Assembly (NCBI GenBank): GCA_019429385.1
Contig: JAHYIS010000003.1
Span: forward strand, 34,825 to 98,824
Direction of reading: 5' to 3'
Origin: ANME-2 cluster archaeon
Lineage (GTDB): Archaea > Halobacteriota > Methanosarcinia > Methanosarcinales > Methanocomedenaceae
DNA length: 64,000 bases
In this document: positions 4,439-64,000 of the stretch, in pieces
Numbering within the stretch: the stretch's first letter is position 1
Layout: each line of letters begins with the position of its first letter
The notes under the pieces: model-generated
What the model saw: only the letters and a program-made list of their open reading frames with translations
Databases searched by the model: none
Told to the model about the DNA's origin: nothing
Translations under genes and position numbers: made by a program

Positions 4439-4990
4439 ATGCCAGGATCGGAAATAAAGATACAGAACGTGGTTGCTTCAACTAAATTAGCTGATAGTTT
4501 TGATTTAGTAAGCATTGAATCAGTCCTTGAAGGTGCAGAATATAATAAAGCTAAATTTCCAGGTATGGTCTACCGGGTTACCAATCCGAAAGCAGCCTTT
4601 CTGATTTTTACTTCAGGTAAGGTAGTATGCACCGGCGCAAAGAATGTGGAAGATGTGGCAATTGTCATTAACAATGTTGCCAGGAAGATTGAATCTCTTG
4701 GCATGAAAGTGTTGATGGATCCTGAGATAACCATACAGAACATCGTTGCTTCAGCTGACCTTGGTACGAACCTGAATCTCAATGCAATTGCGGTAGGCCT
4801 GGGTTTCGAGAACATTGAATATGAACCTGAGCAGTTCCCCGGACTAGTGTACCGTATTAAATCACCCAAGATAGTAGTTCTCATATTCAGTTCCGGTAAA
4901 CTGGTAGTAACCGGAGGAAAATCTCCGGCAGATTGTCAGCGTGGAGTCGAGATCGTACGTGAGCAACTCGAAAGTATGTCGTTGCTCTGA
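4439..4990 (+). CDS. tbp: TATA-box-binding protein
   Basis: Two direct repeats (IQNVVAS... / IQNIVAS...; FPGMVYR / FPGLVYR; [12 protein letters not shown] / [12 protein letters not shown]). Confidence 0.95.
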
Positions 4991-5520: not shown

Positions 5521-6207
5521 CTACTTTTGCCTGATTGCCTGGAACTGGGCTGTCTCATAAGGATATTCGGGCATTTCTGATAGTTCCTTTATACAGTATC
5601 TCCGCTGGTTGCGGTTACCGGTACGTTCAAGTTTATCCTCCCGGTATAATCGGGAGAGGTAGGTGGACACCGTGCTCAGGTTGATGGGGCCATATATCCG
5701 GTCATAGTCACTTTTTACTTCAAGTGATGTGAACCAGTGTCCCTTGTATTCAAAATTGAGGAAAAGTTCCAATCGTTCTTTAATGGTAAGGGACTCGTTC
5801 TTTAGCTGGCTGTATTCTTCAACAGCAATGCCAAAGTTACGAGTCCTTGGGGTTTTGGGTGGTGTGGTTTGAGATGTTTGAAAAGCAGGTTGATTGAATT
5901 GAGCTGTCTGTACTGGTTGGGGCGGCATGGCAGGAGTGTTAACCATTTGAGGTGCAGCAAAACCAGTCTGTTGTGAAGTTGTTTGTATAGAATTGTACAG
6001 GTTGGTGAACTTGTTCATGAGATTCAATAACGTTTCAGAAGTAAAATTGCCGATTATCTCAGTCCTGTCAATAGAACCGTTATCCATTTTTATTTCGACA
6101 CGTATTTCCATTTCATTGTCCTCAATAGTGGCAATATATACCGAAGGAAGGCAGCCGCAAATCCCCTCAGATTGCGGCAGGCATCCCTCGTTTCGGAAGT
6201 ATTCCAT
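5521..6207 (-). CDS. hypothetical protein with a C-terminal winged-helix-like domain and a Q/P/T-rich linker
   Basis: 228-aa ORF. N-terminal ~75-aa Cys-containing domain, a low-complexity QQTGFAAPQMVNTPAMPPQPVQTAQFNQPAFQTSQTTPPKTP linker, and a C-terminal ~90 aa resembling wHTH (STVSTYLSRLYREDKLER). Confidence 0.6.
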   Translation of the reverse strand: MEYFRNEGCLPQSEGICGCLPSVYIATIEDNEMEIRVEIKMDNGSIDRTEIIGNFTSETLLNLMNKFTNLYNSIQTTSQQTGFAAPQMVNTPAMPPQPVQTAQFNQPAFQTSQTTPPKTPRTRNFGIAVEEYSQLKNESLTIKERLELFLNFEYKGHWFTSLEVKSDYDRIYGPINLSTVSTYLSRLYREDKLERTGNRNQRRYCIKELSEMPEYPYETAQFQAIRQK

Positions 6208-6661
6208 CCCCTCCGATGATTGTCCACTTTTACGTTGTGAATGTGTAATTCACACGCAGTGTTGTAGTTAACATGTGAATATACATCACTACTTGTATTT
6301 ATAGTACACAGTGGAAATAGGGGTAAATAGCAGTCTTTACAATAAAAAAACCATTTAACACATTTTTAAAGTAAAAATACTGTAATTTAAGCTGTTTTTC
6401 ATATTCACACCATCACAATACCTATTCACGCAAAATATTTACTATTTTAATTCTATTTATTTTTCCATAGGAAACAAGGGGGTTGACCTATTACAGTTGA
6501 ATACGTCAAATAACTCTTTAAAACCTTAAAAGTGAGATTAACACAGTTATATTCTATTCACACCAGTACACATTGCAGTGAAACCAGTCAATGTGTGAGT
6601 GTGATAATATACCTCCCCCTTTACACAATCAATATCAATCAAAAGGAATATTATAACGAAG
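6208..6661. promoter_or_regulatory. 454-bp AT-rich intergenic region with repeated TATTCAC and ORB-like boxes (candidate origin or regulatory hub)
   Basis: TATTCAC at 6402, 6423, 6555 (+) and 6275-6281 (-); AATTCAC at 6247. ORB-like: CACAGTGGAAATAGGGGTAAA 6307-6327, TCCATAGGAAACAAGGGGGT 6464-6483, TTACAGTTGAATA 6491-6503, TTGCAGTGAAACC 6573-6585, and inverted CCTCCCCCTTTACACAAT 6612-6629. Near-pure A/T stretch at about 6330-6400. Confidence 0.5.
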
Positions 6662-7765
6662 ATGTCTGATGAGCATGTTATTTCGGGGACCATTCTTTAT
6701 GGTGATGAGCCCATGCTTATCGAAGGATACCTGTGCGTGAAAGATGGCATAATCACAGAAGTGGGGACTGATCCGTGTGTAGACGCCACACTGGATGGAT
6801 TGGTGACTCCGTGTTTTGTCAATGCGCATACTCATATCGGTGATTCTATAATCAAGGACCCGCCACTGTCTGACCTGGATAGCCTGGTGCGACCTCCCCG
6901 TGGCCTGAAACATCGTGTACTCGGTGAATCGCTGGATGTCGACCTGAAGCGTGCCATGGACCGGACATTACGTGATATGATGCGCACAGGCACCTGTGCA
7001 TTTTGCGATTTCAGGGAAGGCGGTAGAGAAGGTGCATCCATGCTGGCAGATATCCTTGCCACATCCGCATACTCATCCTCAGGGCTCCAAGGGATGATTA
7101 TGGGCCGGCCTTATCAACCAGACAGGCCGGACAAGGATGAATTAAATGACCTGGTCAAGGTCTGCGATGGAATCGGTATGAGCGGGGTCAATGATGTTCC
7201 ATTCGAAGTGTTACAGGTTGCATCCAGTGTGGCCCGCAGGGAAGGAAAGCCTTTTGCCATACACGGAGGTGAAAAGGATATGTCAGATATCTCAAGGTCA
7301 ATTGAACTGGAGCCTGATTTTATTGTGCACATGACCCATGCTTCTCAGGCACATGTTAAACAGCTGGCAGATGCTGATATACCTGTAGTGGTCTGTCCCA
7401 GGTCGAATCTCGTGACGCGTGTGGGTTCTCCTACCCGCCCTCCGATCGCCAGGATGCTTGACATGGGCGTCACGGTTGCAGCGGGCACAGACAATGTTAT
7501 GTTGAATTCGGTCAATATGTTCTCTGAAATGGAATTCCTTTCAAAGGTATATGGGCTGGAGGACAGACAGGTATTTAATATTTGTACACTAAATGGTGCT
7601 CGGGTACTTGGACTGGCCGAACAATTCGGTTCAATACAGGAAGGAAAAAAGGCAAAGATAATGGTACTGGATAAAAGGTCTTCCAACTTATCTAACTGCC
7701 ATAATATGCTTGCCAGTTTTGTCAGGCGAGGCAGACCTGATGATATCAAGACCATCATCACTTAA
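6662..7765 (+). CDS. amidohydrolase family protein (metal-dependent, chlorohydrolase/deaminase-like)
   Basis: VNAHTHIGDS (HxH metal site), an internal HG/HM His, and a GTDN motif near the C-terminus. Confidence 0.8.
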   Translation: MSDEHVISGTILYGDEPMLIEGYLCVKDGIITEVGTDPCVDATLDGLVTPCFVNAHTHIGDSIIKDPPLSDLDSLVRPPRGLKHRVLGESLDVDLKRAMDRTLRDMMRTGTCAFCDFREGGREGASMLADILATSAYSSSGLQGMIMGRPYQPDRPDKDELNDLVKVCDGIGMSGVNDVPFEVLQVASSVARREGKPFAIHGGEKDMSDISRSIELEPDFIVHMTHASQAHVKQLADADIPVVVCPRSNLVTRVGSPTRPPIARMLDMGVTVAAGTDNVMLNSVNMFSEMEFLSKVYGLEDRQVFNICTLNGARVLGLAEQFGSIQEGKKAKIMVLDKRSSNLSNCHNMLASFVRRGRPDDIKTIIT

Positions 7766-9398: not shown

Positions 9399-9956
9399 TC
9401 AGCGAGATTCCGGGTCCAGCCAATCAGCAAATTTTCGCATAGCATTACCCCTATGCGATACCCTGTTCTTTTTGATATCTTCAAGTTCGCCAAACGTCTG
9501 GCCTTCATACAGGAAGATGGGATCGTATCCAAAACCATGCGTCCCGCGTTCTTCAAATGATATGGTCCCTGCAACTTCACCTGTGAATGTACGGGGCTCG
9601 TCGCCGGGCCGGCAGAATCCCACGACTGTCCTGAACACAGCCCTGCGGTTGGTCTCATTTTCCATGAGCTTCAGGACTTTCCTGTTGCCCAGGCGGTCTT
9701 CCACATATCGTGAGTAGGGCCCGGGGAAACCGTTCAGGACATCGATGAAAATGCCGCTGTCGTCCACCATGACATCCCTGTCCAGCCTGTCAGCACACCA
9801 GCGCGCACCATAGGCTGATATGGTCTCAAGGTCATCGGCCTGCAGTTCAGGATATTCGCAATCGAGCTGTTCTACTTCATATCCCACCTCTCCCAGGATG
9901 TTCTTTGCTTCCCTGAGTTTATGGGCATTGCCGGTGGCGAAATATATCTTATGCAT
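9399..9956 (-). CDS. rdgB: XTP/dITP diphosphatase (HAM1/RdgB family)
   Basis: IYFATGNAHKLREA, DDSGIFIDVLNGFPGPYS, GFGYDPIF, SHRGNA. Confidence 0.9.
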   Translation of the reverse strand: MHKIYFATGNAHKLREAKNILGEVGYEVEQLDCEYPELQADDLETISAYGARWCADRLDRDVMVDDSGIFIDVLNGFPGPYSRYVEDRLGNRKVLKLMENETNRRAVFRTVVGFCRPGDEPRTFTGEVAGTISFEERGTHGFGYDPIFLYEGQTFGELEDIKKNRVSHRGNAMRKFADWLDPESR

Positions 9957-11096: not shown

Positions 11097-12083
11097 CTAC
11101 TGAACTTTCAAATGCTCTTTTCCTGCCTGTGTCGTCTTCCTACCCTGGGGAGTACGTTGAATAAAACCGATCTGGATCAGATACGGTTCATATACATCTT
11201 CAATAGTCCTGACCTCTTCCCCCACTGAAATGGCAATGGTTTTCAGGCCCACGGGTCCACCTTCGAAATCATCTGTTATTATACTAAGTATACGCCTGTC
11301 AAGTTCATCCAGGCCCAGCTTGTCTATACCCAGCATAGTCAGCGCATCATCAGCAACTTCCTGAGTTATCGTTCCATCAGCCCTAACAAGTGCAAAATCC
11401 CTTGCACGCCTCAGTAACCTGTTAACAATTCTGGGCGTTCCACGGCCGCGTTTAGCAATTTCTACAGTCCCATCTCGGGTTATGGGGATACGCAGGATCG
11501 AAGCACTTCGATGCACTACCTCCACAAGTTCCCTAATAGTGTAATGATTTAGCCTGAAAGTAATGCCAAATCGATCCCTGAGCGGTGAACTCAGCAGTCC
11601 TATCTTTGTGGTTGCACCAATAAGAGTAAAATGTTCCAGGTTGAGCTTTATTGACCTGGCACTTGCCCCCTCCCCTATCATCACATCTATTTCCATATCC
11701 TCCATAGCAGGATACAAAATCTCTTCAATAATTGAATTCATGCGATGGATCTCATCAATAAAGAGTACATCTCCTTTTTTAAGTGAAGTAAGTATTGCGG
11801 CAAGGTCTCCGGCCTTTTCCAGGATAGGTCCTGAAGTACTTTTTATACTGACTCCCATTTCATGTGCGATAATATTTGCCAGAGTGGTTTTTCCAAGACC
11901 AGGTGGTCCTGAAAATAAGATGTGGTCAAGTGGTTCACCCCGCTTTTTTGAGGCTTCAATAGCTATTTTTATTGATTCCTTTATGATATTTTGACCTATG
12001 AACTCATCAAGTTTTATGGGGCGGATGGTTGAATCTTCTGTTTCATGATCCTGCTCTGAAGGAGAGACTATTCTTTCTTCCAT
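11097..12083 (-). CDS. ruvB: Holliday junction branch-migration ATPase RuvB (bacterial type)
   Basis: [11 protein letters not shown], Walker [12 protein letters not shown], Walker [22 protein letters not shown], and C-terminal winged helix [10 protein letters not shown]...[17 protein letters not shown]. Confidence 0.95.
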
Positions 12084-12085
12084 AT

Positions 12086-12676
12086 TTACTCTTTAACTTC
12101 TTTTAATTTCAACAGTGCTGCCTTAATTAATACTTCGATCGATGGTGCTTCAAAATCCGCAGATACAGCATCTACAGCTTCCCTGGACTCTCTTTGTTGA
12201 AAACCCAATGATACAAGAGCACTTACTGCATCATAATTGATATTACTGGTGCTGGTGGGAACAAATCCTTTCATTTTCTTTTTCATCTTATCCTTTAATT
12301 CCAGTATCAATCTCTTAGCATTTTTCTTGCCAATTCCTGAAATATTTGTAAGGACTTTTTCATCCTCATTGAGGATCGCACTGGCAAAATCTTCTAATGT
12401 AATTTCAGAAAGGATCTTCAAAGCTATCTGGGGCCCGACTCCTGAAACGCTAATTATTAATTTGAACATCTCAAGTTCGGTTGAGTTCATGAACCCGTAG
12501 AGATTGAGCGCATCCTCCCTGACATTCAGATGCGTATAAAGTGTTACGTGTGATTGTTTCGTAAGTTCCTGTAATGCCGGTTGCGGAACATTTACATGAT
12601 ATCCTATTCCTCCGACATCAATAACAACAAAACCTTCACCACATTGCGCAATTTCGCCACGTAAATGTGAAATCAT
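12086..12676 (-). CDS. ruvA: Holliday junction DNA-binding protein RuvA
   Basis: MISHLRGEI...GYHV OB-fold N-terminus. Two HhH motifs ([13 protein letters not shown]; [16 protein letters not shown]). C-terminal domain III. Confidence 0.9.
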
Positions 12677-12680
12677 ATCA

Positions 12681-13151
12681 TTATCTCATTATATGTATAT
12701 GACATAAAGCAATCGAAAGACCATCAGCCGCATCATCAGGTCTGGGAAGTTCATCCAGACCCAGAAGCCTTGTTATCATCTCCTGCATCTGTCGTTTATC
12801 AGCACGTCCTGTACCTGTTATCGCCTGCTTGATTTGAGCCGGTGTATATTCGAATAAAGGTATTTGTTTTTGTTGTGCAGCAAGTAATATCACCCCTCTT
12901 GCTTCACTTACCCTCATTGCAGACGTGACATTTTTATTGAAAAAGAGTTTTTCAATAGCGACAATTTGAGGATTGTACTTTTCAAAAAGCGTTTTGATCT
13001 CATTATAGATCTCCAGTAGGCGCTCTGATGTTTGTTTTTCAGCAGAAGTTCGAATACATCCATAGCTTACAGGAATGATCTTTTCTTCTGATTTTTGTAT
13101 TACTCCAAAACCAACGGTTGCAAGTCCCGGATCGATTCCGATAATGATCAT
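12681..13151 (-). CDS. ruvC: crossover junction endodeoxyribonuclease RuvC
   Basis: ORF 12681..13202. Family-typical start MIIIGIDPG at 13151. Motifs: AIEKLFF, EYTPAQIKQAITGTGRADKRQ, DDAADGLSIALCH. Confidence 0.9.
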   Translation of the reverse strand: MIIIGIDPGLATVGFGVIQKSEEKIIPVSYGCIRTSAEKQTSERLLEIYNEIKTLFEKYNPQIVAIEKLFFNKNVTSAMRVSEARGVILLAAQQKQIPLFEYTPAQIKQAITGTGRADKRQMQEMITRLLGLDELPRPDDAADGLSIALCHIHIMR

Positions 13152-13171
13152 GGTATTTTTCTCGGCGATTA

Positions 13172-13636
13172 TTAGCTTTCGTATTTTTCTATATAATCCC
13201 AAATTTCTTGATCGGTTTTTGGCATATTACCTTCAAAAAATGTCTTTATCCATTGTAAATACCCAATTCCACTTGGACTTCTGTGTTGCTTCACAAGTTT
13301 GATTAAAAGTCTAACACATGAAATAATCTCCCCATAAGTAAAACTCCTTTCTCCCTCAATTCTGTTAAGCATCAATTGACCTTTCACAGATTGTGAGATG
13401 TTATACGCAAGCGAACCTTTCTTTTGACCATCGAAATCTTTTTTGAGCTTATTGTACGCAGATAACACTGTTTTATCTTTAAGAGCGGGATTTTCCTGCC
13501 ACATAAATAAAACTACGGATTCTATACTGACAAATATTTCATGATAATCGGCTATATCCTCAATAGCCACTTTTCCGTTACCGTTTTCGACCAATTCTGC
13601 CAATTGTTGATTTACATGAACCCTTGTGTTCTCCAT
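13172..13636 (-). CDS. hypothetical protein
   Basis: 154-aa ORF with no recognised domain. It lies 20 nt upstream of ruvC on the same strand. Confidence 0.5.
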   Translation of the reverse strand: MENTRVHVNQQLAELVENGNGKVAIEDIADYHEIFVSIESVVLFMWQENPALKDKTVLSAYNKLKKDFDGQKKGSLAYNISQSVKGQLMLNRIEGERSFTYGEIISCVRLLIKLVKQHRSPSGIGYLQWIKTFFEGNMPKTDQEIWDYIEKYES

Positions 13637-13828
13637 ATATTTTCACCGCCCTTGTGTTCTATAAATAGATTTGTACTTACGCCGCCACTTACCGATGCAT
13701 TGCGCCTTCCATCAATTTATCGCCTCGGTCTGATTTCTTGAAGCTATCATTTTTCTGATGAGCTCTCAGGTATGCATATTGGAAGAATTTCATATGCATA
13801 CATTATTTTCCGGATAATCGTCCCATTT

Positions 13829-14398
13829 TCACTTTATGTGGGCTAACCTCTGATTAATTTCATCAAGGTCAAAGTATTCAGGATCAAAATCATAATCCAG
13901 CCAATCCACCATTTCTTCATGCTCGGGATGTTGCGGATCTTTGAGGATTTCAAGGAGTTCATCATATCCATAAGGACCGCCACAATCTTCCGGAGGACAG
14001 TCACGTTTACCCTTAAGGCAGACCGGATAGTGTTTATCTACTTCCAGAGGGAGGATTTTTTCAACCAGGATTATGTGATACCAGGAATCCCCAAAATCGT
14101 ATTCGTAGATGAATTTAGTATTTTCTTCAAAGACCACCTGGCTTAATGTTATTGTTCTTTCATCAATCACATCAAACATATCAGCCGGGTCAGGTTCACC
14201 ATATATCATTCCATCTATGATAAACTGATGAAGGTGATAACCGTCCCACCCCATCAATTCCTGAATAATGACATGAAGTTTAGATAATGTAATATCGCTT
14301 TTAACCTGTATTCGTCTCCAGATGGGTGGTTTTATCTCATCAAGTGTTACTTTTATCTGATAGATATGAATATCTTCATTCCGTTTCTTTTTAGGCAT
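13829..14398 (-). CDS. pRiA4b ORF-3-like (MM3350-like) domain protein
   Basis: IYQIKVTLDEIKPPIWRRIQV...LSKLHVIIQELMGWDGYHLHQF...YEYDFGDSWYH is the family signature as I recall it. C-terminal CPPEDCGG. Confidence 0.75.
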   Translation of the reverse strand: MPKKKRNEDIHIYQIKVTLDEIKPPIWRRIQVKSDITLSKLHVIIQELMGWDGYHLHQFIIDGMIYGEPDPADMFDVIDERTITLSQVVFEENTKFIYEYDFGDSWYHIILVEKILPLEVDKHYPVCLKGKRDCPPEDCGGPYGYDELLEILKDPQHPEHEEMVDWLDYDFDPEYFDLDEINQRLAHIK

Positions 14399-14541
14399 GA
14401 CAATCACCAATTTCTTATGGAATAATGTCCTGTTAATCGGTTATTAGATTTTCGATTAATTTGAGGAGATTGACTGCATACGAAACCTGAATAAGAAATG
14501 TTTATGTTGTAAAAAATTAATTAATTTCCACTCTCATAAAT

Positions 14542-17500
14542 ATGATCGCACTACATGGAACCTGGAAACCGTCAGAAAGAATAGACACACTGGGAGATTT
14601 CTTCATATGGGGTGAGTTATCCACAGCTTCCACCATCAAACGCAGAGGGCGCCCTCCAAAGATCTCTGCCAGTACACCCCGGCCTCATCCATTTCAGGCC
14701 CCAAACGAGGACCTGAACCGGGTGATAGCATTCCTGGAAAATGGCAATGACAGCATAATCACTAACAGGACATATCAGGATAATGTATTGTTATCGCTTC
14801 CTTCATTTTCAAAATCTCCCCAGGCATCACCTGATTTACTAAGAGATGATGGCAGTGAGGAGACAGATGAGCCAGTGGGTCTAATACCATGGAAAGTACA
14901 TGGTTTAAGCATTCTTCCCCAGGACGCAGTAACATTACTCAACTCACTCTCAGGAGCATGGATCGAATATGACAACACTGTCATTGGAACCGATCTGAGG
15001 TTCTGGAGTAATGTCTCAAAATTTGCACTTGAACTGTTATCAAACCAGCATTTTTTTCCTGGCATGGTTATTTCTGAAGAAAGTAAGATATTTTCCAGAT
15101 GGCAGTATATGCTCAATGATGAGGAAGACAGGATGCGCTTTTCAATCCTTGCAAACTCAATGCCTCCTGTTTGCAGATCACTCCTCCAGAATACTATTCC
15201 AAATACCCGGGAAGCTCTCATATCGGATTTTCTCAATAGTAGCATTAACGGATGTATCAAAAACTGGATGTCAATCTCAGAGATCAAATCAAAAAAGCCC
15301 GGTCTCTCTGAAATATGGTTACGATCCCTGACAACCGGAGAACCGATACAAGTCAATAAGTCAGTTCTTAACAACCTTTCAAAAGGTTTACAATCATGGG
15401 AAGCCCCGATACATGAAATTGAAAAATCCGGATTTCGCACATCGTTCCGGCTTGAACCCCCCATTGAGGAGGAAACAGACATCTGGAATATGCGCTATTT
15501 TCTTCAGGCTTCGGATGACCCAAGCCTGCTTGTGCCTGCTGAAAAAGTCTGGAAAGAATCAAAAGACACACTTAATTTCCTTAACCGTAAATTCGACCAA
15601 CCCCAGGAAAAACTTCTTGCCGATCTTGGGAAAGCCTCCAGGCTATACCCTCCTATCGAGGCCAGTCTCCATTTAGCAAGACCCACTGCCGCCCGGCTTA
15701 GCACGCAGCAGGCTTATTCATTTTTAAAAGAAGTTGTGCCCTTATTTTCAGAGAGCGGATTCGGGGTCCTTATTCCACCATGGTGGAAAAAAGGGGGATC
15801 AAGTTCGAAGCTTGGTGTAACATTAAATGTGAAACAAAAGAAAGACCCTAAAACCAGCAAAGGATTGTTCGGTTTTAACTCAATTATCCAGTACGACTGG
15901 CAGATCGCCATTGGCGGTGAGCAGTTAAGTGAAGAGGAATTTGAGAATCTTGTAAACCTGAAAGAGCCGCTTGTACGCATCAGGGGAGAATGGGTAGAGG
16001 TCAAAAATGAAGATATTGCAGCTGCTATTAAATTCTTCAAATCCGGAAAATCAGGTGAGATGAAACTGGACGAAGCCCTCAGGCTGAGCGCCGGACTTGG
16101 AGAATCGGAAACAGGCCTCCCAGTTGGCGGATTTAATGCAACCGGAGTGCTATCCGAGCTATTTGAGCGTTTATCAGGGAGAACCGGAATAGAAGATTTA
16201 ACACAGCCCGGTGATTTTGTTGGTGAGCTTCGACCTTATCAGGTCAGGGGCTTCTCGTGGCTTGCGTTTTTGCGGGAGTACGGACTGGGAGCATGCCTTG
16301 CAGATGATATGGGACTTGGTAAGACGATCCAGCTTCTTGCCCTGCTCATAAAGGATAAAGAAGAAGGCATCAATAAACCAACCCTCCTGATATGTCCCAC
16401 TTCCGTAGTTGCTAACTGGTATCGGGAAGCGCAAAAATTTGCACCATCCCTCAAGGTTATGATACATCACGGCACAGCCCGGCTGAAGAAAAATGAATTC
16501 CATTCCGAAGCTGTCAAATTCGACCTGGTCATCAGCACCTATGCCCTTGCTTACCGGGATGAGGATATGTTCGAAAATGTGGATTGGAGCGGGGTTGTGC
16601 TGGATGAAGCGCAGAACATTAAGAACCGGTTCACAAAGCAATCCCAGGCTGTCCGTAAAATCAAATCAGACTATCGAGTGGCCCTTACAGGCACACCTGT
16701 TGAGAACCGTTTATCAGAACTCTGGTCTATTATGGAGTTTTTAAATCCGGGCTACCTCGGCTCGGCAGAAGGTTTCAGGAGAGGTTTTGCGATGCCTATT
16801 GAACGCTATAATGACAAAGAAGCAGGCATGAAGCTTCGAAGTATTGTTTCACCATTCATCCTTCGCCGCCTCAAGACAGACCCTGCCATCATAACAGACC
16901 TGCCTGATAAAATTGAGACAAAGGTATACTGCAACCTTACAAAAGAGCAGGCTACACTCTACAAGGCTGTTGTTAAAGATGTGCTTGAGAGAATCGAAAG
17001 CTCAGAAGGAATTGAAAGAAAAGGGATCGTGTTATCAGCACTTACAAGATTAAAACAGGTATGCAATCACCCGGCGCAGTACCTGGATGACGGTTCGGTA
17101 CTCCCGGGACGCTCAGGCAAGTTGAATCGTATCACTGAGATGATGGAAGAGGTGATAGCTGAAGATGATGCTGCGCTTGTCTTCACCCAGTTTTCCGTGA
17201 TGGGAAACATGCTTAAAACGCATCTCCAGCATGTCTTTGGCCAGGAGGTACTCTTTTTGCATGGCGGAGTGTCCCAGAAACAGCGGGACCATATGGTTAT
17301 GAGATTTTCAGAAAAGGGCGGACCCCGGATATTCATTCTTTCACTCAAAGCTGGCGGGGTGGGTCTGAACCTCACCCGTGCCAGTCACGTGTTCCACTTT
17401 GACCGGTGGTGGAACCCGGCCGTTGAGAACCAGGCAACAGACCGTGCTTTCAGGATCGGGCAAACCAAAAATGTGCAGGTTCACAAGTTTGTGTGCGAAG

Positions 17501-17655
17501 GGACTCTTGAAGAGAGGATAGATGAGATGATAGAGGATAAGAAAGCACTTGCCGAGAATGTTGTTGGGACGGGCGAGGGCTGGCTGACAGAGATGTCGAC
17601 CGAGCAGTTGAAGGGTTTATTTGCATTGAGGCAAGAATCAGTGATGGATGAATAA
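14542..17655 (+). CDS. SNF2-family helicase with a long N-terminal SNF2-associated region
   Basis: 1037 aa. Helicase core from ~aa 560: LRPYQVRGFSWL, LADDMGLGKT, VLDEAQNIKN, LTGTPVENRL, SLKAGGVGLNLT, WWNPAVENQATDRAFRIGQ. Confidence 0.9.
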   Translation: MIALHGTWKPSERIDTLGDFFIWGELSTASTIKRRGRPPKISASTPRPHPFQAPNEDLNRVIAFLENGNDSIITNRTYQDNVLLSLPSFSKSPQASPDLLRDDGSEETDEPVGLIPWKVHGLSILPQDAVTLLNSLSGAWIEYDNTVIGTDLRFWSNVSKFALELLSNQHFFPGMVISEESKIFSRWQYMLNDEEDRMRFSILANSMPPVCRSLLQNTIPNTREALISDFLNSSINGCIKNWMSISEIKSKKPGLSEIWLRSLTTGEPIQVNKSVLNNLSKGLQSWEAPIHEIEKSGFRTSFRLEPPIEEETDIWNMRYFLQASDDPSLLVPAEKVWKESKDTLNFLNRKFDQPQEKLLADLGKASRLYPPIEASLHLARPTAARLSTQQAYSFLKEVVPLFSESGFGVLIPPWWKKGGSSSKLGVTLNVKQKKDPKTSKGLFGFNSIIQYDWQIAIGGEQLSEEEFENLVNLKEPLVRIRGEWVEVKNEDIAAAIKFFKSGKSGEMKLDEALRLSAGLGESETGLPVGGFNATGVLSELFERLSGRTGIEDLTQPGDFVGELRPYQVRGFSWLAFLREYGLGACLADDMGLGKTIQLLALLIKDKEEGINKPTLLICPTSVVANWYREAQKFAPSLKVMIHHGTARLKKNEFHSEAVKFDLVISTYALAYRDEDMFENVDWSGVVLDEAQNIKNRFTKQSQAVRKIKSDYRVALTGTPVENRLSELWSIMEFLNPGYLGSAEGFRRGFAMPIERYNDKEAGMKLRSIVSPFILRRLKTDPAIITDLPDKIETKVYCNLTKEQATLYKAVVKDVLERIESSEGIERKGIVLSALTRLKQVCNHPAQYLDDGSVLPGRSGKLNRITEMMEEVIAEDDAALVFTQFSVMGNMLKTHLQHVFGQEVLFLHGGVSQKQRDHMVMRFSEKGGPRIFILSLKAGGVGLNLTRASHVFHFDRWWNPAVENQATDRAFRIGQTKNVQVHKFVCEGTLEERIDEMIEDKKALAENVVGTGEGWLTEMSTEQLKGLFALRQESVMDE

Positions 17656-17678
17656 TGGAATATACGGATAGTTGAATC

Positions 17679-18563
17679 ATGGGCAGGTATGAAGACTTCT
17701 GGGGCGGCTATACTCCTTCAAAGCCAATACAGGTGGAAGGCGGTATCAAAGCCAAAAGCAAGAAGGGCAGTATCGGAGATACCTGGTGGTCAAAACGTTG
17801 GGTGAGTGTCCTGGAATCCTTTGGCTGGAGCAACCGGCTTGAGCGGGGAAGACGATATGCCAGAAAAGGCCAGGTGCTTGATTTTGAACTTTCGGCCGGA
17901 AAAGTCGAAGCAAAAGTCCAGGGCTCGGTCCGGAAACCTTATTCAGTTACTATTGAGATTAAACCGATTACTGAAAAATCATGGGATTATGTCATAGAAG
18001 AGATGTCTCAAAAGGCAATATTCGCAGCAAAACTACTTGCAGGCGAGATGCCACATGATATTGAAGAAGCCTTTGAAGCAGAAGATATATCGCTGTTCCC
18101 TGAAAAATCGAAAGATATAAAGACGCACTGTTCATGTCCGGATAGTGCAAATCCCTGTAAACATATTGCTGCACTGTATTATATTTTGGCTGAAGAGTTT
18201 GACCGTGACCCTTTCATGATCTTTGAATTGCGTGGCCGGACAAAGGATGAAATTATTTCATCTCTTCGCCAGAAGCGCACTGACGAAAGCCATCCTGAAC
18301 CAGAAGAAATTTTTGATGTTGCGCAAGTAAAGGAAGTTGCTTTGTCCATGGATGATTTCTGGGAAGGGGGGGATAGCGAATCATTTTCAGTTAATATCTC
18401 GCTACCTGATGTATCGGCAGCAATTATCAAACGGCTGGGAACACCGGAATTCTGGGATAGCAAGGTCGATTTTGTAGAGAAAATGGGCGGGTATTATGAA
18501 GAGATTAGCAGGCGCGCTATTGTGACTGCTTATTGTGAACAGACAAAAACGAAAAAGAAATGA
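17679..18563 (+). CDS. SWIM zinc-finger protein
   Basis: CSCPDSANPCKHIAALYYIL matches the CxCxnCxH SWIM motif. The N-terminal WWSKRW...RLERGRRYARKGQV is typical of the SNF2-partner family. 23 nt downstream of the SNF2 gene. Confidence 0.85.
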   Translation: MGRYEDFWGGYTPSKPIQVEGGIKAKSKKGSIGDTWWSKRWVSVLESFGWSNRLERGRRYARKGQVLDFELSAGKVEAKVQGSVRKPYSVTIEIKPITEKSWDYVIEEMSQKAIFAAKLLAGEMPHDIEEAFEAEDISLFPEKSKDIKTHCSCPDSANPCKHIAALYYILAEEFDRDPFMIFELRGRTKDEIISSLRQKRTDESHPEPEEIFDVAQVKEVALSMDDFWEGGDSESFSVNISLPDVSAAIIKRLGTPEFWDSKVDFVEKMGGYYEEISRRAIVTAYCEQTKTKKK

Positions 18564-18798
18564 AACAATGAGTCTGATCAATACTCCAGGATAAGCCTGG
18601 GAGACTATGAACTGGAGGGTGTAGACGATATCGGTATTGATGACTTTAGCCAGGAAGAGTTCCTGGGTGACGAGGACGACCTGCGGGGTGACTTCCCGGG
18701 AGATGCAGATGGGCTGCTGGGAGCCTATGCCGGCAATGTGGACCGCTACGTGTTCTGAAGCGGCGAAGTGATGAACTGGGTGGCCATTCTTCAAGCGC

Positions 18799-18978
18799 GA
18801 CTCCATGCTGGTCAAACTTCACATGCTTGATCGTCAGGTTTCCAATCTCGCTGATCCTGGCGCCGTTCACATATAAACTGGCTATCAATGCTCTGTCTCT
18901 GGGATGTTCGCAGGCATTGATCATATTCTCGATCTCTTCCCCACTCTGCAGGTCTTCAGGAAGCTTATGTGAATGATT
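18799..18978 (-). pseudogene. tyrosine recombinase/integrase fragment (decayed)
   Basis: Minus-strand frame reads ...PEDLQSGEEIENMINACEHPRDRALIASLYVNGARISEIGNLTIKHVKFDQHGV, the integrase core-domain signature. A stop lies immediately upstream, similarity is lost downstream, and no catalytic R..HxxR..Y region is recognisable. Confidence 0.6.
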
Positions 18979-19243
18979 TCAAGACGATATTTTTATCCAC
19001 TCTATAGTTTCATCCATATCCAGCCATCTCAGTTAATATCTTCAATTCAATCAAGTGTTTCAATACTCTTGCTATCTTCAAACCTTCTGAAAAACAAAAA
19101 CTCTCAAACTAAAAAATCAGTTGTTTATTTTCCTCAGTGATGCTGGAATTTCTGATTCTCCCTTCAACAGATTTAAGATTCTGTTCAAGGTTGTACAACA
19201 TGTGTTATCACATTCCATTCTAATCTCTTAACCACTCAGGAAG

Positions 19244-19306
19244 CGAAGTGAAAGTATTCGAAGTGAAAGTATTCGAAAAAAGGTGAGAATCGAACGTGAA
19301 ATTTTA
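19244..19306. repeat. 15-17-bp tandem repeats abutting the tRNA-Leu 3' end (2 perfect CGAAGTGAAAGTATT plus 2 degenerate)
   Basis: 19244-19258 and 19259-19273 are identical. 19274-19290 (CGAAAAAAGGTGAGAAT) and 19291-19306 (CGAACGTGAAATTTTA) are degenerate. Confidence 0.75.
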
Positions 19307-19391
19307 TGCGGGGGAAGGGATTCGAACCCTTGAACTCCTTCGAGAATAGATCTTGAGTCTATCACCTTTGGCCTGGCTTGGTTACCCCCGC
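19307..19391 (-). tRNA. tRNA-Leu (anticodon CAA)
   Basis: Manual fold of the reverse complement: acceptor GCGGGGG/CCCCCGC, D arm ACC..GGT, anticodon stem ATAGA/TCTAT with loop CTCAAGA, long variable arm, T arm AAGGG-TTCGAAT-CCCTT, discriminator A. Confidence 0.9.
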
Positions 19392-19407
19392 ACAGGGGAA
19401 ATGGGAA

Positions 19408-59570: not shown

Positions 59571-60105
59571 TGATGAGTACTTCCTTTATATCCTAACGAG
59601 ATTATGATGGTTATTTAATAATGTGACCTGCTTTTTAGTATAGTTATTCACGTGATTTTTCAGAAGTAATTTATTTTAATAAATACAAGTGAATATATAT
59701 AACAATTTCTATACAGTTTTTATTATTCACTATATATAATTCTACTTAAATTGTTGTTATTGTTTCACTCACATTCTAGTCCTTCACCATAAACCCCTCA
59801 AAAACCGGGCTTTAATTAATTCTTTGTGTCTACGAATTAATAATCTCATGAGGTAAATCCCAAAAGTGAATATTTTTAAGTTAGAAGAGGCACCCCAGGA
59901 AATAGGGTAAAACGATGCAGAGCTTGTCGTTCCAATATTATCAAACTACCTCGGATGCTGCGAACTTTCACCGACATTGATATGACCATCAGGTGTATAA
60001 ATAAAGGCAGATTAATGTAAACACGTTTGCTAATCTTTATCTATTCTCTGATTCTAGATTCCAAATAATTGATCGGAAAAACCGGATGCTCTGGATACAT
60101 GGATA
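59571..60105. promoter_or_regulatory. 535-bp AT-rich divergent intergenic region sharing motifs with 6208-6661
   Basis: TATTCAC at 59644 and 59723 (+) and at 59688-59694 and 59865-59871 (-). GGAAATAGGGTAAA at 59897-59910, versus GGAAATAGGGGTAAA at 6313-6327. Confidence 0.5.
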
Positions 60106-62922: not shown

Positions 62923-64000
62923 GTGGTTTATGTAAGCAGAAATCTGGAGAACCTGATAAAGGAGAATCTTGACAAACCTGAAATAATTGCAATTCTCGGG
63001 CCAAGACAATCAGGAAAAACAACTCTTCTCAAGCATATTTTCCAGACTCTTGAAAATGCAGTGTTCATAAGTTTTGATGACAGGATGGTACTTGAGATGT
63101 TCGTTGAAGATGAGAAAACCTTCGCAGAACTTTATGTAAAGAATAATCGGTACCTCTTCATAGATGAGTTCCCGTATGCAAAGGAAGGGGGGCAGAAGTT
63201 AAAGTACATTTATGACCATTACCCGGATACAAAAATATTGGTATCAGGCTCTTCTGCTCCCGGGCTTACAATTCATGGTATTAAATATCTCGTAGGCAGG
63301 ATATTTGTCTTCAACCTGTATCCACTTTCCTTTGAAGAGTTTCTAAGATACCGGAATGTGGAGCTTTTTGATACCTACCTGAGCAGGAAAGATGCAATTC
63401 GGGCGTATCTCTATGAAAGTGGCGAATTGCCTGTGATCAGCAAACCGCTTATGGAAATGCTAAACGCAATCTATGATGAGTATATTGTCTATGGCGGATA
63501 TCCCAGGGTTGCAATCTCAAAGTCCGGTGGAGAAAAGAGGCTCGTTTTGAAGAATATATACAGCACTTATTTTTTACGGGAAATAAAGGATATGTTGAGC
63601 TTAACTACGGATTTTAACCTGAGCAGGCTAATCAAGGCGCTATCAATAGAACTTGGCGGGCTTATATCCTATTCAAGTCTTGGCGAAGTTTCAGGTTTTG
63701 ACTATAAGGGGCTTTTATGGCATCTCAACATTCTTGAGAAAACATTTATCTGTAAAAGGATTGTTCCTTTTTTTACCAACAAAAGAACTGAGATAATCAA
63801 GATTCCAAAAGTGTATTTTTTTGACAATGGGTTCAGGAATACCATTATTGATGATTTCAGGCCCTGCGATATCAGGCAGGATATCGGCATGCTGAATGAG
63901 GCATTTATTTTTTCCCAGTTGACATATGGGGGTGTGGAAGTAAAGTTCTGGAGAAGTAAATCCAAGGCAGAAGTTGATTTTATTGTGGAAAAGGAAGGTA
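62923..64000 (+). CDS. AAA+ ATPase (AAA_14/DUF4143-type), 3'-partial at the window end
   Basis: Absent from the ORF track because there is no stop within the window. The frame is open from 62887, with a candidate GTG start at 62923. Walker A ILGPRQSGKTTLL and Walker B LFIDEF. The later part (FFTNKRTEIIKIPKVYFFDNG) is typical of the DUF4143 region. Confidence 0.8.
   Translation, partial: MVYVSRNLENLIKENLDKPEIIAILGPRQSGKTTLLKHIFQTLENAVFISFDDRMVLEMFVEDEKTFAELYVKNNRYLFIDEFPYAKEGGQKLKYIYDHYPDTKILVSGSSAPGLTIHGIKYLVGRIFVFNLYPLSFEEFLRYRNVELFDTYLSRKDAIRAYLYESGELPVISKPLMEMLNAIYDEYIVYGGYPRVAISKSGGEKRLVLKNIYSTYFLREIKDMLSLTTDFNLSRLIKALSIELGGLISYSSLGEVSGFDYKGLLWHLNILEKTFICKRIVPFFTNKRTEIIKIPKVYFFDNGFRNTIIDDFRPCDIRQDIGMLNEAFIFSQLTYGGVEVKFWRSKSKAEVDFIVEKEG

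Follow-up and report, generated by a model that had tools for sequence, protein, structure and literature searches.

At a canonical archaeal replication origin of the oriC1 type, as seen in ANME-2 and Methanolobus, four to five full origin recognition boxes (ORBs), with an inverted pair among them, lie beside an AT-rich stretch and next to orc1/polD, each box comprising a TCCA-N2/3-GAAA dyad and a GGGGT G-string with an AT-rich 5′ flank. ORBs also occur away from the unwinding region or orc1: orphan boxes are known in Methanomassiliicoccales (PMC4153887), such as ORB3 and ORB4 of ‘Ca. Methanomassiliicoccus intestinalis’, a cluster sits inside dp1 in Pyrococcus (PMC1904270), and a cluster that titrates Cdc6 lies downstream of Haloarcula oriC2 (PMC4010727). 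Purified Cdc6 binds a single full ORB with high affinity (PMC1904270). In Sulfolobales the Orc1 paralogue Orc1-2 acts as a global transcription regulator (PMC9738581), a precedent for control of promoters by an Orc1-family protein, and in Sulfolobus the gene of the winged-helix initiator WhiP is paired with an origin, oriC3 (PMC4010727). Here we describe a locus that recalls each of these systems, in a 64,000-nucleotide stretch of the genome of an ANME-2 cluster archaeon (contig JAHYIS010000003.1, positions 34,825–98,824; hereafter ‘the window’). Its subject is a gap free of open reading frames (ORFs) at window positions 6208–6661, flanked by divergent ORFs at 5521–6207 (−) and 6662–7765 (+), which an earlier note had proposed as a candidate replication origin or regulatory hub.

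Like oriC1, the gap contains a box, ORB-B, with the dyad, the G-string and the AT-rich 5′ flank, and has an AT-rich stretch beside it; unlike oriC1, it has one full ORB rather than four to five, no inverted pair and no adjacent orc1/polD, and its box belongs to a module held at a fixed distance from a promoter, the ORB-less Methanolobus counterpart of which is 632 kb from orc1. Orphan ORBs are likewise remote from orc1 or the unwinding region, but ORB-B is a single site, conserved order-wide and at a fixed distance upstream of one regulator gene. With Orc1-2 of Sulfolobales, a different phylum, the likeness is one of possible role. The neighbouring winged-helix gene resembles the arrangement at oriC3, although oriC3 has no ORB where the gap has one, and the winged helix here is of a RosR/MarR/Fur/BlaI-like kind.

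On balance we lean, if only somewhat, towards reading the gap as regulatory DNA with a probable Orc1-binding site and not as a chromosomal origin. The best-supported view is of a control region that serves mainly the winged-helix regulator gene on its left, and that also holds the promoter of a divergent amidohydrolase–Usp–CBS cluster on its right. ANME-2 archaea are uncultured, and their replication and regulation are known from sequence alone; an ORB-containing gap away from orc1–polD should not be annotated as an origin on the motif alone.

An origin recognition box linked to a regulator gene

Five ORB-like strings had been listed in the gap, and all five lie at the coordinates first given for them, but only ORB-B (Table 1) is supported as an ORB by consensus, position weight matrix (PWM) and nhmmer alike; a second, ORB-A, has the core only, and the other three fail. 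The consensus sequences used were the archaeal CTTCCAGTGGAAACGAAAGGGGT (PMC4153887 Table 2), the euryarchaeal GTTCCAGTGGAAAC-AAA----GGGGG (PMC1868953) and the Methanomicrobia motif TCCA[GC]T[GT]GAAA[CT][AG]A[AT]GGGGT (Ori-Finder 2, PMC4164010 Table 1). ORB-B (TCCATAGGAAACAAGGGGGT, 6464–6483) agrees with the last of these at 17/20 positions and is the sole site in the window with three or fewer mismatches to it, 0.15 being expected. It is also the top site of the 64 kb on a PWM derived from canonical ANME-2 ORBs (17.9 bits, where the runner-up site reaches 7.0 and the highest-scoring shuffle 14.8) and with an nhmmer profile from ANME-2 origin ORBs (E=0.028). ORB-A has the same core as canonical ANME-2 ORBs but is without the TCC arm, has a spacer 2–3 nt short, and gives an nhmmer match of just E=8.8 over its 10-nt core (6309–6318); it is kept in ANME-2a/b-like loci, nowhere else in the 1.28 Mb that the window and the fetched loci comprise, and is absent from the Methanosarcinaceae homologues described below. 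An element at 6573–6585, kept in close relatives, has no ORB score on the profile, and the C-run of the string formerly taken for an inverted ORB (6612–6629) varies among relatives (TCTC, CTCC, CGCC, TTTC). A further possible inverted ORB on the minus strand (6206–6233, AGTGGACAATCATCGGAGGGG), found by eye, was rejected: it is undetected by the profile and is explained by a GAGGGGAT box in the regulator's leader.

ORB-B is retained in the orthologous ANME-2 loci, 13/15 of which match ORB regular expressions (L003 has a variant core and L006 a degraded G-string), and its TTTCCA, GAAA and GGGGG segments are kept by nearly all of them. Across the 1.28 Mb, non-coding matches to TTCCA..GGAA[AC].{2,6}GGGG fall only at this orthologous locus. 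The lone other ORB-pattern match, in L069, is inside a coding region and was rejected as chance, and mini-ORB strings upstream of Methanoperedens orthologues (L024 and, by position, L033 and L049) overlap a listed upstream ORF and were set aside. Where clades differ in the core of ORB-B (CCATAGGAAA, CCAATTGAAA, CCAGTGGAAG), the variants stay close to the cores of canonical Methanosarcinales origin ORBs, one of them being identical.

The surrounding locus is conserved as well. The window, which encodes the archaeal TBP at 4439–4990 (Pfam scan), has genes with 86–88% protein identity to metagenome-assembled genomes (MAGs) of ANME-2 and ‘Ca. Methanocomedens’, and the order TBP, small ORF, left gene, long gap, amidohydrolase is kept in 16 ANME-2 loci. 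The gap can be aligned end to end across relatives (alignments A1 and A2). Its identity to the window was compared with that of four-fold degenerate sites in the amidohydrolase gene: 0.77–0.87 against 0.74–0.75 in the closest relatives, 0.72–0.75 against 0.54–0.55 in intermediate relatives, and 0.60–0.62 against 0.37–0.41 in the most distant. Because the gap is the more conserved of the two at all three levels of divergence, it is, judged by these comparisons, functional non-coding DNA under purifying selection. The ‘regulatory hub’ that had been offered as an alternative to an origin fits the evidence. The conserved parts are discrete short blocks separated by variable spacers, a pattern typical of protein-binding sites. 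One relative (L003, gap at 1267–1777) has a 15-bp tandem duplication of a ATTCACACC box, and in the gaps of L006, L009 and L011 some 250 bp, rich in TCACAT-type repeats, have been inserted between positions that correspond to 6610 and 6620.

The ORB is linked to the regulator gene beyond ANME-2 as well. Homologues of the regulator in Methanolobus, Methanomethylovorans (L091) and a Methanosarcinaceae MAG (L092) lie between a divergent AAA ATPase gene and uvrB, which follows after two small DUF131 genes or, in L092, directly, and they have a gap of 450–620 bp on their 5′ side. In five lineages a TATA box (TATAAATA or TTTATATA) precedes the first GAGGGGAT box by 87–114 bp, and from ANME-2 through Methanolobus and Methanomethylovorans a pair of GAGGGGAT boxes is found at +87 to +146 from it. 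A single ORB in the orientation of ORB-B is present 171–180 bp upstream of the TATA box in 3/5 lineages, the distance between starts being 171 bp in L091 and L092 and 180 bp in the window. On the profile, for which origin ORBs alone served as the training set, the L091 box, TTTTCCAATGGAAATGAAGGGGTT, reaches 21.6 bits (E=7.7e-7); that of L092 reads CTCCAGTGGAAGTAAGGGGGTT. On the complete chromosome of Methanolobus sp. ZRKC2 the regulator locus, which has no ORB, is at 2.555 Mb and the orc1–polD origin, with 5–6 ORB-profile matches, at 1.923 Mb. Since the module persists beside a different neighbour, and since the two ZRKC2 loci are 632 kb apart, the ORB appears to be tied to the regulator promoter and not to a replication origin. 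In Methanolobus sp. WCC4 (L081) and in L093 the regulator–uvrB region is flanked by integrase, Zot-like and many small genes, which suggests integrated mobile elements nearby.

A mechanism can be proposed in which the TATA box at 6296–6303 would drive the regulator gene leftward, from a leader of ~160 nt with two GAGGGGAT hairpins. Most likely, Orc1/Cdc6 would bind ORB-B (~160 bp from the TATA box, or 180 bp start to start, on the regulator strand) and the half-ORB ORB-A, which abuts the TATA box, and once bound would act as a transcriptional input or landmark for the regulator gene, with no assembly of an origin. Binding of Orc1 at ORB-B is plausible because a single full ORB binds Cdc6 in vitro, because ORBs outside origins and Orc1-family regulators are known, and because the core variants resemble those of origin ORBs. 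Should Orc1 indeed bind at this orphan box, the locus would be a conserved euryarchaeal case of a promoter that incorporates an initiator site. More tentatively, it is possible that Orc1/Cdc6 is wired into regulation across Methanosarcinales, through a conserved ORB that precedes by ~175 bp the promoter of a lineage-specific winged-helix regulator whose mRNA carries a pair of GAGG-tetraloop hairpins; were this true, replication initiation or the cell cycle would be coupled to a transcriptional programme. Both the conserved ORB–regulator link and the hairpins of the leader offer modestly novel leads.

The canonical origin and competing explanations

A consensus-like Orc1 query (1e-153 against Orc1 structures) led to Methanosarcinales Orc1 and from there to six ANME-2 contigs (L085–L090). 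Each contains UPF0147, a gap of ~700 bp (74–77% AT), orc1 and one intervening gene, and in 5/6 this is followed by polD DP1, L090 ending before that point. In the gap beside orc1 a single ORB is inverted and three are forward (consensus TCTCCAGTGGAAATCA.RGGGGT); a mini-ORB, also inverted, is present, and TATTCAC is absent. The main origin of ANME-2 is probably, by its gene order and boxes, this orc1-adjacent gap beside polD DP1. It is well conserved between MAGs (positions, for example, 9289–10000 in L086 and 9364–10000 in L085). One of these origins (L086) and one orthologue of the gap studied here (L009) come from the same assembly, JAIWAT01, so that, if the binning is right, a single genome has both. 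The assembly is labelled as an Anaerolineales bacterium, yet L009 and L086 carry ANME-2-type archaeal genes, and the bin is probably mislabelled or mixed.

Set against these origins, the gap has little of the classic oriC layout once attributed to it, namely oppositely oriented G-string boxes around an AT-rich core. The canonical ANME-2 and Methanolobus origins examined have three to five ORBs and an inverted pair around an AT-rich stretch that in canonical origins is 80–87% AT across 200–260 bp. In the gap one site is significant on the profile, as against 4–6 matches in canonical origins; ORB-A and ORB-B are plus-strand elements, and the supposed inverted partner at 6612–6629 is neither conserved nor given a score. 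A near-pure A/T core had also been described. The core exists, its 6328–6462 stretch being 77.8% AT, but it is not near-pure, and the 68.5% AT of the whole gap is ordinary in a window where the remaining gaps have 45–76% AT; its least stable 100-bp segment ranks fourth window-wide. The earlier note was right that no orc1/cdc6 gene adjoins the gap, and none was detected in the window by a Pfam scan of ~60/70 selected ORFs (all of at least 135 aa) or by a Walker-motif scan. That note had named three results that would tell against an origin. A canonical orc1-adjacent origin with different boxes is indeed present elsewhere, in related ANME-2 genomes. The cumulative GC skew climbs steadily from 1 to 10 kb with no turn at 6.2–6.7 kb, which counts weakly, as a window of 64 kb cannot settle the question. 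For the third, confinement of the boxes to the upstream regions of a regulon, one second cluster of TATTCAC boxes (59645–59872) speaks in its favour. By its own tests, then, the candidate-origin interpretation is largely refuted.

Several observations weigh against the reading of ORB-B as an Orc1 site at a promoter. Both Methanolobus homologues of the regulator (L081 and L093) are without an ORB, so that the box is not obligatory for the gene; and the 17.9 bits of ORB-B are far under the 28–40 bits of the ORBs on which the matrix was trained. In Pyrococcus, chromatin immunoprecipitation on microarrays found the origin to be practically the sole Cdc6 site in vivo, with isolated mini-ORBs unbound (PMC1904270). 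The canonical origin, moreover, was seen in the genomes of relatives and not in that of the window itself, and another winged-helix protein could be what recognises such dyads.

This last point leads to an account that we consider doubtful, in which the gap serves only as promoter and operator and its likeness to an ORB is incidental, TTTCC-N3-GGAAA with its G-run being an operator of the winged-helix protein or of some other factor rather than of Orc1. The site is a dyad that always accompanies the regulator gene, many other conserved boxes of the gap are clearly not ORBs, and TATTCAC recurs in another gap, all of which would suit such an operator. An operator of this kind does not readily explain why an asymmetric G-string should be kept in ANME-2, L091 and L092 as it is in canonical ORBs, why core variants should remain near the cores of origin ORBs, or why the L091 element should score so strongly on a profile of origin ORBs. 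A secondary or dormant origin, at which Orc1 bound to ORB-A and ORB-B would melt the 6328–6462 stretch and the winged-helix protein would be accessory or initiator-like, as with oriC3 and WhiP, is less probable still and in our judgement unlikely. Multiple archaeal origins are established and origins away from orc1 have been proposed (PMC4010727, PMC4164010); here an ORB and a half-ORB lie 157 bp apart around AT-rich DNA, in a strongly conserved gap that a winged-helix gene adjoins. Yet a single element passes as an ORB, the two point in the same direction with no conserved inverted partner, the skew does not turn, and AT content and helix instability seem ordinary among the gaps of the window. 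The modules of L091 and L092 are likewise of one ORB at a fixed promoter distance, and the winged-helix fold matches transcription factors, with no initiator structure among the 50 best matches listed.

That the gap encodes a structured non-coding RNA, or a long 5′ leader transcribed rightward towards the amidohydrolase gene, seems very improbable. Conservation along all 454 bp and a 12-mer (ACTTGTATTTAT) shared with a second long gap could be taken to favour it, but the conserved parts are short blocks with variable spacers, relatives tolerate the 15-bp box duplication and the ~250-bp insertion noted above, and plus-strand covariation across the gap is absent (RNAalifold covariation term −0.09 kcal/mol). 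Rfam found only tRNA-Leu in the whole window at gathering thresholds, and in the gap at E up to 10 gave four weak matches, all sub-threshold. The sole covarying hairpins are those of the regulator gene's predicted leader, which is on the minus strand.

The winged-helix regulator and its predicted leader

The gap is ORF-free over the 454 bp first reported, but the start of the left gene is doubtful: the gene probably begins at M33 (ATG 6111–6109), and the real gap is therefore probably ~6112–6661, or 550 bp. In most orthologues the ‘MEYFR’ frame 5′ of M33 is broken or shifted, the majority of homologues start where M33 lies, and residues 1–32 of the left ORF are disordered in an AlphaFold2 model. 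The same model has a small N-terminal domain (residues 33–78), a disordered Q/P-rich linker and a C-terminal winged helix-turn-helix (wHTH) domain (129–206). The protein has no Pfam or NCBIfam match. Foldseek returned only generic wHTH folds of transcription factors (RosR, MarR, Fur, BlaI), at E 7e-3 or worse, and no Orc1/Cdc6, Cdt1 or plasmid replication-initiator structure was among the 50 best matches listed. Members of the family, some of them annotated as BlaI/MecI/CopY, occur in Methanosarcinales only.

Both GAGGGGAT boxes of the predicted leader lie in hairpins, the proximal one capping a stem of 6154–6160/6172–6178 and the distal one within a hairpin at 6193–6216. On the sense strand of the regulator the proximal box folds as AUCU[GAGG]GGAU, above lower stems that differ by lineage and remain complementary (GCCGCAA/TTGCGGC, GCCATAA/TTGTGGC, CCCCCGCAA/TTGCGGGGG, GCCACA/TGTGGC, ATCCAT/ATGGAT, GAATCCAC/GTGGATTC). 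G-U pairs in these stems are possible only on the minus (regulator) strand. These stems, which covary between ANME-2 and Methanosarcinaceae, and the strand-specific G-U pairs support a transcribed, structured leader at ~6112–6275 (−), transcription itself being a deduction from these features. The pair of GAGG-tetraloop hairpins may be a new, hitherto undescribed RNA motif of cis-regulatory type. Leader boxes are also present at 9923–9971 in L081 and in the upstream regions of L091, L092 and L093. In several lineages the box is directly followed by an ATG, giving a short ‘MEYFR...’ upstream ORF or an ATG-TAA start-stop.

Other boxes and features of the window

Features of the gap and of its flanking genes are collected in Table 1.

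Table 1. Coordinates of the intergenic features and flanking genes in the window
Feature	Position	Strand	Remarks
Winged-helix (wHTH) regulator gene	5521–6111	−	Start probably M33, ATG 6111–6109
Predicted transcribed leader of wHTH gene	6112–6275	−	~160 nt; two TC(T/G)GAGGGGAT boxes, 6217–6207 and 6172–6162
Palindrome TGTGAAT-N5-ATTCACA	6236–6254		Candidate operator at or just downstream of the putative wHTH transcription start; read from sequence
Deeply conserved block GTAGTTAACATGT	6264–6276		Almost no variation in alignment A1 or A2
TATA-like box TATTTATA (TATAAATA on minus strand)	6296–6303	−	Conserved; putative core promoter of wHTH gene
ORB-A, partial ORB CACAGTGGAAATAGGGGT	6307–6324	+	Core CAGTGGAAAT and G-string; abuts TATA box
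AT-rich stretch between ORB-A and ORB-B	6328–6462		Holds conserved boxes TTTAACAC (6354), TATTCACACCATCACAA (6402–6418) and TATTCAC at 6423
ORB-B TTTTCCATAGGAAACAAGGGGGTT	6461–6484	+	Origin-recognition-box-type element; consensus, PWM, nhmmer, conservation
Box TTACAGTTGAATA, TTACAGGTGAATAC in relatives	6491–6503	+	Conserved in alignment A1; no match to ORB profile or PWM
Imperfect dyad TATTCACACCAGTACACATTG ... CAATGTGTGAGTGTGATAATA	6555–6609		From repeat search; encloses the previously listed element TTGCAGTGAAACC (6573–6585)
‘Inverted ORB’ of the earlier note, CCTCCCCCTTTACACAAT	6612–6629	−	Unsupported: no ORB-profile match
Deeply conserved block CACAATCAATATCAAT...GGAATATTATAA	6624–6661	+	Directly 5′ of amidohydrolase ATG; invariant in A1, largely kept in A2
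Amidohydrolase gene (chlorohydrolase family PRK07213)	6662–7765	+	Heads co-directional cluster, followed by Usp and a CBS-domain gene

Four exact TATTCAC boxes in both orientations had been noted, and are present at 6275–6281 (−) and at 6402, 6423 and 6555 (+), with AATTCAC at 6247–6253. Their chance expectation is, as had been supposed, well below one (mean 0.13, maximum 2, in 2000 dinucleotide shuffles of the 454 bp). Some 7-mer nevertheless attains four or more copies in 21% of shuffles, which makes the post-hoc significance of TATTCAC weaker than it appears. Across the window the box is not enriched (12 observed, 9.85 expected), and 8/12 copies sit in two long divergent gaps, the one studied here and another at 59571–60105. 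The latter, AT-rich, divergent and 535 bp long, has TATTCAC at 59645, 59689, 59724 and 59866 and no ORB; in common with the studied gap it has the 12-mer ACTTGTATTTAT, which includes the TATA-like box, and the 10-mer GGAAATAGGG. The genes on either side of it encode a membrane-like protein of 389 aa and a protein of 174 aa, neither with a family match; a shared protein family at the two clusters was rejected, the 174-aa protein being unrelated to the winged-helix protein. TATTCAC was likewise discarded as an origin element, with zero copies in all six canonical ANME-2 origin gaps; as those origins carry none, the GTGAAT/ATTCAC boxes are not origin features. Those near the promoter are candidate operators, of the regulator itself or of other factors.

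Conservation differs among these boxes. In the palindrome at 6236–6254 the left arm, GTGAAT, is invariant in eight genomes and the right arm variable. Conservation of the block at 6264–6276 extends to clades in which the flanking protein is just 65% identical, and within 6328–6462 a block ATTCACA.CA..AC is invariant in every ANME-2 clade aligned. The dyad at 6555–6609 is kept among close relatives only; compensatory changes are absent from it, and the profile does not recognise it as an ORB. The block at 6624–6661 is presumably the promoter or translation-start region of the amidohydrolase gene, to judge from its place directly before the start codon. Exact-protein look-ups for the window amidohydrolase and for P0087 returned no record.

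Most gaps of the window are, as first described, shorter than 200 bp, which a survey of the gaps bore out; further long ones measure 535, 692 and 524 bp, the longest ORF-free gap being that at 63010–63701 (692 bp, 60% AT). Elsewhere, positions 11097–19392 carry a bacterial-type RuvB–RuvA–RuvC operon, a PRiA4_ORF3 protein and an SNF2 helicase with a SWIM protein, beside tRNA-Leu. This segment looks like a variable island, since the close relatives L082 and L083 carry different genes between RIO kinase and PolB.

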